Shown piece after piece: positions 49,601-63,672 of a stretch of DNA of 64,000 bases. A program made the position numbers and the translations under genes. The stretch lies in the NCBI GenBank assembly GCA_039621445.1, contig CP154954.1:21190642-21254641 (forward strand), in the 5' to 3' direction. The notes beneath the pieces are model-generated. The model saw only the letters and a program-made list of their open reading frames with translations, was not told the origin of the DNA and searched no databases. This stretch comes from Euglena gracilis (lineage: Eukaryota). Within the stretch, counting starts at the first letter, position 1; every line of letters begins with the position of its first letter.

Positions 49601-52600
49601 ATGGTCTCTGTCTGTCTGTCTTTCGCTCTCACTCCCGCTTTGCAGTGCCGCAGGGGAGGCTCAACTCGCAGACCAGACCTCAATTTAGTATGTAGCACCA
49701 AAAATTTTTTTTTACGTATCACATGTATCACAGCCTAAAAATTAATGTATCACATATGTATCACCAAAAATTTTTTAATGTATCATATATGTATCACCAA
49801 AAAAAATTTAATGTATCACATATGTATCATCAATTTTTTAAGAAAATTTTACATTTTTACATCAAAAATGTTTTTTTCAGCTTCCTGTTCCACTTTTTAT
49901 CCTTTTTTCTTTGCCTCTCTGCAGACACATGGAACACTTTTCTTGTGATAATGTTTTGCTGGACAACTGCACGTTCGTCTGTGAATTTTTCAGCTTACGA
50001 ATTTGTGTTTCACAACTTTATTATATGTTTCACTAAGGAGAATTTTTGTTTTACATATGTATTACCAAAAATTTTTAATGTATCACATATGATGGGTGTT
50101 ATCTGTATGTACATCTACGCGGGGGTATCCACGCGGATAAGGGTAGCAAGGTGGGTGGGGGTGGGAGGGAGTGGGTGAAGGGGTGAATGGAAATTTTTAA
50201 TGTATCACATATGTATCACCAAACAAAATTTAATGTATCACATACGTATCACCAAAAAAAATTTAATGTATCACAGATACGTTGTGATACGCACTAAATG
50301 GCGGTCTGTCGCAGACCATTTGCATGGCGGCCCGGCCAGGGGTCTTTTTAGTCGTGGACCCCCCCGGGGGGGGAGGGTGGGCCCCCCTGGGTTGTACTTT
50401 CCGGCACCGAAGGCACCGTAAATTTTTGAAAAAGTGCTATTTTTAGAATTTTTCGCGAATTTTGGCCTTTTTCGGGGAAAGTTGAGTGGGTCCCCTGGGA
50501 CCCCTCAGGGAGTGGGTGGGTGGGGGGGACCCTCCCCGGTCTTAAAAAGCCCCTGGGCTCGGCACCACGGCAACCGCCTCCACTACGACCTCCACGCCCT
50601 CTACGGCTGGGCCCAGCAGCGGACCACGTTCCTTGCCCTTGCCCGGGGCTGACCGGGACTCCGAAACGCACATGGGTGGTGGGGCCAGGGGTTTTTTTTA
50701 AAGCCGGAGGGTACCCCATCCCTGGGGGGGGGGGTCCAGCCAGCCAGCCAGCAGCTCAAATCCAGCCAGCAGCCCAAATTCGGGCTGGGAGCCCCCTCCC
50801 CCCTGGGGATTGAATGAAATAAAGTCGGGTCCAGCCAACTGGGCTGCCCAGCTCACCTATCCCTGCATGTTTTCCCCTCATCATAGCTTCCTCCATCACA
50901 GCCCCCCAGCCTTGACCTAGCTCCATCCATCAAAATGTCGAGAAGGCAAAAATGTTTTAGAAATTTTTTGTTTTTCATCGACCCAGCCCAGCACAGCCCC
51001 CTCCAGCCCCGGACCCCCCTCCCCCCCCCCTATCCCCCCGGGGGGGGGGCCAGCCAGCAGCTCATTTCCAGCCAGCAGCTTTTTTGCCAGCCGGAGGCTG
51101 GACCCCCCCCCCCCCGGGGTCCTTAAGAAAACCCCTGGGTGGGGCATACGATCACTTAGTCACTGGCCGACCCCCCCCCCCCCCGGGGGGGGGGTGGGTG
51201 ACTTCTTTTTTTTCAGAGTGACTGACTGGTTTTTGGCCCGGACTCCCTCCCCCCGGGGGGGGGTCGGCAAAAAACCACTAAAGTGATCTGGTGCCCAAGG
51301 CACCTGAATTTTTTTGGCCTTTTTCGTGTTTTTGGTCAAATTTACTTTGGATTCCAGAGTGTCCGACCCCCTCCCCCCGGGGGGGGGGGAGTGACTGACT
51401 GGTTTCCCCAAAAAGTGACTGACTGGTTTTTCGAAGAGTGAAGTGACCCCTCCGGGGGTCGGTAAAAAATTTTGTGTGATGGTGGGGCTGATGGGTCCCC
51501 CCACCCCCCCAGGCCTCCCCGGACAGCCGTGCCCTCGCCCAGCAGTGGCGCCAGCGGCCCCTCGTCGTGTCAAGCAGCACCTACTCCGGGAGCGGCCGGT
51601 ACGGCGGGCACTGGATGGGTGTGCCCGCCGTACTTTTTTTTGCGCCGAGACCCGGGTGGGAAACGGAGTCTTGACGTGCATTGAACATCTGAAGGTGGTG
51701 TCAAATCAATTCCGTGGGTTTTTATTTTGTCACAGATTCCCATCCCCCCCTGTTCTGGAGGAATATACAATCACGGCCTCCTCGGAAGTCATCGTATCCG
51801 GTTTGGTGGTTAGCCCGAGGGTGGGGTTACGATGCAGAATGTTTTAAGTTGGGGGGTGGAGGGTCAAATTCACAGTGCAAACCTTTTGGGTGGTGGGCAT
51901 TCGTTTGGTGCAAGATGGGAGGTGTTTCCCCTGCTGTCAGGTGACGTCCGCCCGAACTACACTGACATGGCAGCCACCATCCCCGGCATCCTCGCCTTCT
52001 CCCTGTTCGGCATTCCCCTCGTGGGAGCTGACGTGTGCGGGGATCCGGACACCACAGACGAGGAGCTGTGCGGACGCTGGTACCAGCCATGGATTCATTC
52101 AACCCGGCCGTGGTATGGCGCAGGGGTGGGTGGGTTTACGGGTGTGTGCGTTTGGAGCGCTGGACCCCCTTTGGAGGGACGGGATGCCCCCAAGGCCGGA
52201 CATTTTTTTTTCACAGGGTTTTAGCCGCTTGGGGGGGGGGGGCTTTGGATGGATGGGTGAGTTTGGTGGGGGAGTGTGAGTGAGTGGATTTTCAAAAATG
52301 GGTTGCAGGGTGGGTTTGGACCATACCATTGGCTAAGATATGTCCAACTCCCCCCCCCAAGGGTGATGACTAGTTTTTTTTTTTTTAGAGTGACCCCCAA
52401 AAGGAAAGACCAAAAGTGGCGGAAGGGGCTGTTTTTGGGGGGGGCATTTGGCCACAATTTGGCCCAATGGAGTGATTGACTGGTTTTTTGAAACTGGAAA
52501 GTGACCACAACCCGGAGTCAGTAAGCAATGGTGTGGTTTGCGTCTAGGAAATAATACCCCCCCCCGGGGTTACAAAGTGGGTCTATGGGACCAGCTCGGT

Positions 52601-61785: not shown

Positions 61786-63672
61786 ATGGCCGGCTGGCTC
61801 CCTCTGCCGTGGCTCTGGGCCAGGCTTCTGCTTAAGGGATTGCAGTACCCGGGGGGGGGGGGCTGGAATGCAGCTAGTCCAAATTTGGCTAGTGGGATTT
61901 CTAGCGGACCCCCCCCCCGGGGGGGTCCTTGAGCAAAAGCCTGCTCTGGGCGGCGCTCTCCCTGCCGTGGGGCGCGTGGGGGGTCCCGCAGAGCCACATC
62001 CGCCTCCTCAACGCGTGCAGCGACTGTCCGCCGCTGCAGCTGTTCGAGGGAGGAGGGCGGCCCCGCCGGGGTTGTGGGTGGTTTTTGTTTGCACTCAGGC
62101 GACAACCCCACCTGAGGACATTTTCGGCAGGTTCTGAGCTTTCACTGGGGCACATTCGAAGGAGGAAGATTGAAAGTTGAGCATTTACAGATTCTTGGAA
62201 TGCATCAAAATGTTATGCACAAATGCATTTTTTTGAAGTTGAGGTATTGTTTATTTCTACGTCTCTCCATTTATCATCATGATGTGTATGTTATGCATCC
62301 ATACATACGTTATCTTCATCACATCTTCAACGACATGTCTATATCGGCATGCATGCATACAAAAATGCATTTTTAAATATGTCTGCTGTGAAGATGCTTC
62401 ATTTCTCTTTTGCTTTCCAGAAGAAAAAACGGTACTGCTCTCCCCCAGTCATGCGAAGGTGATCCGCTCCCAGCCCTACAGCCAGATCAGAGATTTTTTT
62501 TTTACGTTTGGTGTCCCGGGGGGGGGGTCAAGCAAAGTGGGCACCCCCCCCACTTCCCTCTATTTTCAGTGCGAAGCGAAGTCGATTTTGGACCCCAGAA
62601 TTGACCCCAAAAGTGCCCCCCCCCCCCGCCGCCTGCCCACCCCAAGGGTTCTTGGGTGGGACCGGACCCCCTCCCGTGGTCCTAAAAAAAATGCCTGAGC
62701 CGGATCTCGGAGTACGTCACCCTCCCGGTGGGGCCGGCCCACATCACCGTCCGGGTTCGCAACCAGGCCGTCTTTCCTGCTTTTTGTGTACCCATCCTCC
62801 AGGTTTCCCCGCCAGACCGGCCCCACCCCACACTACCCCATCCTTTAACATCCTATGGTCCCACAACCGCTTAGCACCCCCCCCCCCCGCGTCCAACCAC
62901 CAAATAGTCACCCCAGAGGGAAAAATGCTGAAGAAGCAAGAGACAACACTGTGCAAAAACCACACGGTGTGCTGAAAATACAGGCAAGGTGGGTTTGCCA
63001 ATTTTTGGGTTTTGGGCAGAATTATAAAATTGACCAAAACGCTTTGTTTCACACTGCAGGTTTTATTATTTTTAAGGCAAAATTTTTCAAATGTTACAAG
63101 ACGGGGGTTTTAAGGTTTTTAAAGGTTTTTAAGGCATTTTGAGAATTTTTGAGAATGTTTAAGGCGTCTATTGTCCATGGGAGATGGGCGGTCAAAGGGC
63201 CGTCCGGGCATCGAACCAACGTCGGTCCAGGTTGAAAATAAAAAAAACAAACAAAACATTTTTTTTGGAGTTTGGGTGTATCGACAATGTTCCAGCGATG
63301 CCAGAAATCATTTTCCCCTCTGGAGTTGGCTTGCTTTTTTTTGCTGAGATTTTACGACTTCTTATTTTTTTGCTGGAAATTCGCAAAAAAAATTCCGGAC
63401 GAATTTTTTTAAAGGTTGTTGAAGGTTTATTTTGAATTTTTTTCAGGCATTTTGGAAAAAAAGATTCCTCCCAGGGACGACAGCAGTGGCTGGCCGCCTG
63501 CCCGGAACTCCACCACGCTGCTACGGCAGGAGCCGGTGCACCTCCCGCCGAACCCCATGGCCAGGGCCCGCGGTGCGCCCGGTGCAGTCTGTTGCAGCCC
63601 TCTCGGCCCCGTCTCCTTGGGGGTCCGTTGTGCCACGCAAGCCCTGTGGTGGACGTACGTGGTGTTCGGGAC
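61786..63672 (+). CDS. Secreted DUF4397-like protein, 3'-incomplete
   Basis: Exons 61786-61817, 61949-~62056, ~62449-62484, 62703-62760, 63476-63558 and 63652-~63672. They give MAGWLPLPWLWAALSLPWGAWG (signal-like), SHIRLLNACSDCPPLQLF...PYSQISEYVTLPVGPAHITVR...TYVVFGT. This resembles DUF4397 (RllhasPDaP...Y...SeY..lp.G) from memory; not searched. Confidence 0.65.
61821..61943. mobile_element. Exon-inserted 123-bp MITE forming nonconventional intron 61818-61948
   Basis: TIR CAGGCTTCTGCTTAAGG / CCTTGAGCAAAAGCCTG; perfect TSD CTCTGGGC. Confidence 0.9.
62488..62697. mobile_element. Exon-inserted MITE forming nonconventional intron 62485-62702
   Basis: CAGAGATTTTTTTTTA ... TAAAAAAAATGCCTG. TSD AGCCAGAT / AGCCGGAT. 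Removal restores PYSQISEY. Confidence 0.8.

Follow-up and report, generated by a model that had tools for sequence, protein, structure and literature searches.

Small inverted-repeat elements with 8-bp target duplications as probable nonconventional introns in two genes of Euglena gracilis

Nonconventional introns of euglenids are described in four papers as lacking GT-AG borders and having CAG/CTG pairing, spacers of 3 nt and 5 nt, a downstream purine and 'slidable' direct repeats, and an origin from transposable elements of the miniature inverted-repeat type (MITEs) has been proposed for them (PMC3935182, PMC4770533, PMC11282704, PMC12501133). The same description suits a set of short elements in a 64,000-nt stretch of Euglena gracilis DNA (assembly GCA_039621445.1, contig CP154954.1, positions 21,190,642 to 21,254,641; hereafter the window), which interrupt the coding sequence of a GH31 alpha-glucosidase-type gene and of its expressed neighbor. 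The MITE-origin proposal dates from 2014 (PMC3935182). An 8-nt direct repeat was noted in 2016 at a strain-specific, newly gained gapC intron of E. agilis and ascribed to break repair (PMC4770533), the origin of nonconventional introns was counted among the open questions in 2018 (PMC6221363), and a 2024 review mentions repeats resembling target site duplications (PMC11282704). Nonconventional introns make up about 70% of E. agilis introns, and a 2025 motif analysis excluded the slidable ones (84% of all introns) and called their origin unclear (PMC12501133). The accounts of euglenid introns consulted name no repeat family and either exclude the repeats or ascribe them to break repair, whereas the window holds identifiable families both inside and outside exons. 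A full-text literature search returned no link between the 3-nt and 5-nt spacers and an 8-bp duplication and no named Euglena MITE family, within main texts whose supplements may bear on the matter (for PMC12501133 its sliding-distance figure, for PMC4770533 its Table S3).

Transposons that create introns have been described in other lineages as well. The introners of Micromonas pusilla and other algae are, like the window elements, short inverted-end transposons that become introns on insertion, with a duplication that helps exact removal; they are spliceosomal, with one GT/AG site brought by the element and the other by a 3-nt duplication, and form very uniform families (PMC11282704). Introns of Fritillaria borealis and Amoebophrya share inverted ends, target duplications, non-GT-AG borders and species-specific positions with the window elements, and differ from them in duplications of 3-5 nt, an adapted spliceosome and, as far as the review describes them, the lack of a CAG/CTG 3+5 register (PMC11282704). 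Compared with introners, the window elements show non-GT-AG, stem-guided removal, an 8-bp duplication that gives both spacers, and several dissimilar families; in none of the six (0/6) do element and duplication together supply spliceosomal GT/GC-AG sites. In maize, the hAT element Ds, which makes an 8-bp duplication, was reportedly found by Giroux in 1994 to be removed from transcripts as a de novo intron when inserted in an exon. Its removal is said to use cryptic spliceosomal sites and to be imprecise, in contrast to the window elements, which leave exactly to the base.

We consider it probable that MITE insertions in coding exons of this locus act as nonconventional introns from the start, leaving the RNA together with one copy of their 8-bp duplication. 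The six coding interruptions are as follows.

E1: element 49674 (CAG) to 50308 (CTG), 635 bp, plus strand (49666..50316 with both duplications); in a GH31 coding exon; duplication TCGCAGAC on both sides, 8/8; inverted ends 12/14.
E2: element 50337-50555, 219 bp, plus strand (50329..50563 with duplications); in a GH31 coding exon; duplication GGCCCGGC/GGCTCGGC; ends 11/14.
I6: element 50644-51531, 888 bp, plus strand (50636..51539 with duplications); coding interruption; duplication CCCTTGCC/CCCTCGCC, 7/8; ends CGG..GTG, 11/14; holds two nested elements.
E3: element 52088 (CAT) to 52587 (ATG), 500 bp, plus strand (52080..52595 with duplications); in GH31 coding sequence; duplication GTACCAGC/GGACCAGC; ends 8/14 as DNA.
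E4: element 61821-61943, 123 bp, plus strand (61813..61951 with duplications); in the second gene, 11 codons from its start; duplication CTCTGGGC at either side; ends 12/14.
E5: element 62488-62697, 210 bp, plus strand (62480..62705 with duplications); in the second gene; duplication AGCCAGAT/AGCCGGAT; ends 12/14.

E1 to E5 had been proposed by an earlier reading of the letters alone (the sequence-only reading), and both direct reading and recomputation upheld their positions, inverted ends and 8-bp duplications, two of them perfect and three with one mismatch; I6, a sixth coding interruption, had been missed. CAG and CTG stand at the ends of E1, E2, E4 and E5, with the variants CAT/ATG in E3 and CGG/GTG in I6; spliceable CGG variants have been reported (PMC12501133). 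The claim that none of the elements has GT-AG ends also held, as no register compatible with the mRNA offers GT/GC-AG in any of the six (0/6).

Removal from RNA was observed for the two elements of the second gene. Reads were mapped over positions 44000-63999 from two contig runs that we guess to be RNA (X1 and X2), a raw RNA-Seq run sampled at about 5%, and a DNA run (X20), and 15 of 1393 joints were listed. At E4 a joint from 61811 to 61943 skips 131 nt (123+8) in an X2 contig (depth 169) and in four raw RNA reads; at E5 a joint from 62484 to 62703 skips 218 nt (210+8) in X1 and X2 contigs and in six raw RNA reads. Neither joint occurs in the DNA run (0 in X20). The junctions expected in RNA by the sequence-only reading were thus found for both elements, with the element and exactly one duplication copy skipped. 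The single mismatch of E5 lies at position 5 of the duplication, and the upstream A is kept in the mRNA, so the leftmost cut that the joint allows falls precisely 3 nt before CAG; four other registers would fit it just as well.

For the GH31 gene we compared an in-silico splice with P0001, a 778-aa GH31 homologue (Pfam PF01055, PF13802 and PF21365). Removing each of E1, E2, I6 and E3 with one duplication copy gave 501 nt with 0 stops and 167 gapless residues, 106/167 of them identical to P0001 (score 592). Setting any single junction to the element only, or to the element plus two copies, shifted the frame and lowered the score to between 58 and 526, and 18 stops appeared when all elements were retained. 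The earlier claim that removing an element with one duplication restores conserved protein therefore stands in part: it holds in the GH31 gene, where E1, E2 and E3 give the gapless match to P0001, and what the second gene offers is precise removal seen in its RNA joints.

Around E3, both exon contigs have exactly 51 nt upstream of 52829, ending at 52590, and low-depth unspliced contigs extend to 52619, that is, 52589+30. The contig breaks at the mismatch base 52589/52590 would correspond to a fork in the assembly graph, as expected if spliced and unspliced E3 coexist (depths of about 54 and 6.6). As an observation in its own right, the E3-retaining contigs (52111-52619, both RNA-type runs) differ from the window at 52541 and 52545, with letters that are absent from the DNA run and that could reflect a strain difference, a paralogue or editing.

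The published splicing code allows the geometry of these elements to be compared with that of older introns. Nonconventional introns carry CAG at +4,5,6 and CTG at -8,-7,-6 (PMC11282704); knock-in experiments found both CAG and CTG to be required, with a 5' spacer that must be 3 nt and a 3' spacer that is preferably 5 nt, where one added base is tolerated and three added bases abolish splicing, and a purine is preferred as the first base of the downstream exon (PMC12501133). When CAG opens an element and CTG closes it, the 3 nt that precede it and the 5 nt that follow it add up to exactly one 8-bp duplication, so that removal is scarless by construction. Three nonconventional introns of the window, listed here, were read in the same register.

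48641-49086, plus strand: older nonconventional intron without sliding; CAG at +4..+6, CTG at -8..-6; flanking repeat 3/8.
62761-63505, plus strand: nonconventional intron of the second gene; CAG/CTG in the 3+5 register at shift 0; flanking repeat 5/8.
63559-63651, plus strand: nonconventional intron of the second gene; CAG/CTG in the 3+5 register at shift 0; flanking repeat 2/8.

An RNA-verified intron at 47549-48582 also shows no sliding and a flanking repeat of 2/8; in both it and 48641-49086, CAG occupies +4, with CTG or TTG at -8. Another RNA-verified, non-GT-AG intron, 62050-62447, has complementary GAG/CTC at +4/-8 and a flanking repeat of 2/8, and may represent another variant of the splicing code. 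Overall, CAG at +4 with CTG or TTG at -8 was seen in 6/7 of the nonconventional joints listed, the seventh being the GAG/CTC intron. The numerical identity of 3+5 and 8 that the sequence-only reading had pointed out is borne out by the published spacers and by the two introns whose borders are unambiguous, 48641-49086 and 47549-48582 (PMC12501133, PMC11282704).

Scored at the 3+5 register, the flanking repeat is 8/8 in E1 and E4, 7/8 in E2, E3, E5 and I6, and from 5/8 to 2/8 in the other five introns. At least 7/8 is therefore reached by 6/11 nonconventional introns, each with a chance of 3.8e-4 at one fixed register, and 2/8 is the chance level. This series fits a gradual decay of those halves of the duplication that lie on the intron side and are under no constraint. 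Position 6 of the duplication, which becomes the first base of the downstream exon, is a purine in 6/6 interrupting elements (G, G, G, A, G, G), in agreement with the published purine rule (PMC12501133). Both junctions share one dinucleotide because of the duplication, and the pyrimidine|purine consensus described for the two intron ends would follow from this (PMC6221363, PMC11282704).

We also asked how far a length of 8 exceeds chance. The scan covered CA...TG pairs 40-3000 bp apart, with the first and last 14 nt matching in inverted orientation at 11/14 or better (n = 1215 in the 64-kb window, run free of any complexity filter). Exact repeats of k bases abutting the ends numbered 4 at k = 4, 6 at k = 5, 0 at k = 6 and 7, 10 at k = 8 and 0 at k = 9-12, a peak at a length of 8. 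With up to one mismatch, the same pairs gave 7 at k = 7, 13 at k = 8 and 3 at k = 9. The window has at least 13 elements with an 8-bp duplication and ends of 11-14/14, a set that includes E1, E2, E4 and E5; E3 and I6 fall outside the scan filter. When the right flank was slid as a control, 6 exact matches appeared at -3 and 2 at +2, and all of them trace to palindromic or tandem arrays at 24.3, 29.3 and 16-19 kb.

At 24289-24496 and 29284-29728 lie arrays of palindromic units (GTGAAGTTCACCGGTGAACTTCAC-like), which are a source of false inverted-repeat and flank-repeat matches. At 16396-16491 and 18817-18915 lie tiny elements of 66-96 bp with inverted ends of 14/14 (CACCGGACTCAGGA, TCACCGGCTTTGTC) and flanking runs of C or G.

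Related elements occur outside coding sequence, and five full copies belong to two families.

2742-3035, minus strand (2734..3043 with duplications): E2-family copy in orientation opposite to E2; perfect duplication GTCCCCCC; ends 14/14.
35261-35508, plus strand (35253..35516 with duplications): E2-family copy in a GH31 intron; perfect duplication ATTTGAAT; terminal bases mutated.
50686-51137, plus strand (50678..51145 with duplications): 50686-family copy nested within I6; duplication GGTGGGGC.
47818-48272, minus strand (47810..48280 with duplications): 50686-family copy within the RNA-verified intron 47549-48582; duplication GCCGAAGG.
60922-61393, plus strand (60914..61401 with duplications): 50686-family copy between the GH31 stop at 60335-60337 and the second-gene ATG at 61786; duplication TTTGGGGG/TTTGGGGA.

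Partial E2 copies were found at 47733-47827, 48228-48377 and 58355-58612, and with the full copies they substantiate the claim that the family of E2 also occurs elsewhere. The three full copies of the 50686 family are 74-78% identical. A further family, with CAT...ATG ends, is represented at 9862-10222 (duplication CTACCCAG), at 45549-45868 and at about 51146-51480. The duplicated 8-mer differs at every copy, which points to a staggered DNA cut by a transposase; copying by way of RNA, or repair with its variable microhomology, would leave a different trace. E1 to E5 are dissimilar to one another except at their ends, in keeping with the multi-family character claimed for them. The 14 ends of seven elements (E2, E4, E5, 2742, 47818, 50686 and 60922) have a CAGG..TTT..TTAAG(G)ACC motif in common, which suggests that one transposase served several families. 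On these grounds (inverted ends, a copy-specific 8-bp duplication and multi-copy families also outside exons) the elements are supported as transposon-like. One arrangement within I6 stands apart: the 8-mer GGTGGGGC occurs three times in succession at 50678-51488, with two unrelated elements between (50686-51137 and about 51146-51480), as though a second element had inserted into the first one's duplication or immediately next to it.

In the DNA run, word depth was 10^3-10^5 in element-bearing bins and about 55-130 in unique bins, counted per bin and not per element. Since element-bearing bins reach depths of 10^4-10^5 (X20, 44000-63999), such repeats appear to form a large share of the genome. 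Loose ends at 49701 in the DNA run show an E1-like CAGACC... end with other flanks, and no empty-site joint was seen among the joints listed for this one DNA run.

Predicted RNA structures bear on how the ends might be brought together. The terminal ends are paired in the minimum-energy RNA folds of E2, E3, E4 and E5, and E3, as RNA, forms a 13-bp terminal stem with G-U pairs. Stability of the whole-molecule fold is exceptional for E4 and E5 only (z-scores of -5.85 for E4, a hairpin, and -3.72 for E5, with -1.72 for E2 and +0.79 for E3). In the centroid fold of the intron at 63559-63651, unpaired tails of 3 nt (5' end) and 5 nt (3' end) are left over.

From these results we propose the following course of events. 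Non-autonomous, cut-and-paste MITEs would make an 8-bp target duplication on insertion, most of them sharing ends of the form CAGG-T-rich-TTAAGGACC, and an autonomous partner would have ends CAGGGGTTTTTTTAAGGACC. Several would have entered coding exons of the GH31 glycosidase gene and of the neighboring gene. In the pre-mRNA the inverted ends would pair as a stem with CAG at its start and CTG at its end, and the machinery of nonconventional introns would cut 3 nt upstream of CAG and 5 nt downstream of CTG; since 3 and 5 nt together make one duplication copy, the mRNA would regain the exact sequence present before the insertion. Afterward decay would set in, both in the ends and in those halves of the duplication that belong to the intron, from perfect repeats (E1, E4) through 7/8 (E2, E3, E5, I6) to introns that keep the CAG/CTG register only. 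What we infer here is the cut in the 3+5 register at all six elements, the recent date of the insertions and the identity of the transposase that moved them. The suggested MITE origin of nonconventional introns finds support in the window from the anatomy of the elements, the families outside exons and the removal of E4 and E5 from RNA.

Several points weigh against this proposal. No joint for E1, E2, E3 or I6 is among the 15 listed of 1393, and their predicted removal leans on homology to a relative that is 63% identical; for E3 it leans additionally on the interpretation of contig breaks, and unspliced E3 contigs are present at a depth of 6.6 vs 54, with two letters absent from the DNA run. 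E3 also has inverted ends of only 8/14 as DNA and only a 34-bp match elsewhere within the window, and E1, E4 and E5 have no second full copy within the window. Perfect duplications leave the register of the cut unreadable from mRNA. In 5/11 nonconventional introns the flanking repeat does not rise above chance, and some of these may have a different origin. The tolerance for one added base in the 3' spacer makes the 5-nt side a preference and not a fixed ruler (PMC12501133). The sample, moreover, is one 64-kb window.

The identity of the transposase was weighed separately. An 8-bp duplication together with short inverted ends that start with CAG is the classic signature of hAT transposons, whose end consensus is YARNG and whose target pattern is nTnnnnAn. 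The sequence-only reading had called the elements hAT-type, and this label keeps its footing in the duplication length and the CAG ends, with nothing found that contradicts it. YARNG is only partly matched: CAGGG (E2) and CAGAG (the 5' end of E5) conform, and its strict form does not cover CAGAC (E1), CAGGC (E4; also E5 at its 3' end) and CATGG (E3). By an eye count the target pattern agrees at 11/30 positions, not clearly more than chance would give. A Pfam scan of 20 open reading frames (ORFs) of the window found no hAT domain, the sole match being HTH_33 at 37334-37858. The elements might instead belong to a P-like, Mutator-like, Merlin, Zisupton or unknown superfamily, possibly with another again for the CAT..ATG elements. 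The missing domain and the partial fit to YARNG and nTnnnnAn speak for such an assignment, the duplication and CAG ends speak for hAT, and we hold the assignment outside hAT as a tentative option, a little short of even likelihood. The one frame with a match is of interest in itself: it encodes 174 aa on the plus strand within a GH31 intron (HTH_33, E = 2.8e-11). We take its winged-helix domain to be typical of Tc1/IS630-type transposases; the nine neighboring frames showed no DDE domain.

Two accounts would dispense with transposition into exons as the source of these introns, and both seem to us very improbable. The 8-nt repeats might be scars of double-strand-break repair left by intron gain, as was proposed for the 8-nt repeat at the newly gained gapC intron of E. 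agilis (PMC4770533). Repair microhomology would vary in length, whereas lengths of 6, 7 and 9-12 are absent here, and the fixed length of 8 recurs around elements that are related, multi-copy and inverted at their ends, both intronic and intergenic. Nonconventional introns might also spread as RNA, with excised molecules reinserting in transcripts and being copied back to DNA, so that the MITEs would be products and not sources; excised nonconventional introns are indeed described as full-length circles (PMC11282704, PMC12501133). An RNA copy, however, would bring along its parent's 8 nt, and here the repeat changes from copy to copy and stands at either side of each; some copies are intergenic, and those within the introns of one gene occur in both orientations. 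The sequence-only reading had also held that any such insertion would be a ready-made intron in either orientation, which we keep as a conjecture. A subtler question is that of causal direction: the sequence-only reading had suggested that the splicing geometry may have evolved to neutralize such insertions. The match between 3+5 and 8 could equally be survivorship and not adaptation, the register having come first and only transposons with a duplication of 8 having persisted in exons. The window data do not order the two events, and the register is shared by older introns whose repeats have decayed. This alternative is compatible with all the data and departs from the earlier suggestion in causal direction only; we regard it as evenly poised between right and wrong.

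The window offers named repeat families with target duplications inside and outside exons, together with a numerical link between the splicing code of 3 nt and 5 nt and an 8-bp footprint. That link explains scarless removal, sliding borders and alike junctions at once. A wider claim would be that most euglenid nonconventional introns trace back to a single group of small transposons, which make 8-bp duplications and share a CAGG...TTAAGGACC end, and that the 3-nt/5-nt rule exists because it equals the duplication; we put this forward tentatively, as possible and a little short of even likelihood. If it is true, each genic insertion would be erased scarlessly from RNA, and the mostly 'slidable' introns and the common pyrimidine|purine consensus would be explained. 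The question of origin becomes one of counting, for which any euglenid genome will serve, and the transposon origin long proposed for nonconventional introns gains concrete support. The case would also add a non-spliceosomal member to the transposons known to create introns.

The genomic setting of the elements is intron-rich nuclear DNA, and the host DNA is euglenid nuclear. By tblastn of the homologue P0001, the GH31 gene on the plus strand reaches from 33673 or further upstream to its stop at 60335-60337, with at least 24 exons. A 49-aa exon used as protein query retrieved two GH31 proteins, and a 69-aa exon retrieved no homologous protein. A search of metagenome contigs returned 7 related loci, all at 46% identity or less, with no close relative and no transcript across E1-E3. 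A GT..AG intron at 54277-55139 was read by eye. Another intron lies near 57890-58160, and three more lie further upstream, at 33.8-41.8 kb. The second gene, which is expressed, starts with the ATG at 61786 and continues past the end of the window. Near the N-terminal GH31 exons, clusters of the palindrome CTAGTCGGCCGACTA at 31900-33400 flank a stretch of about 1.3-1.4 kb.

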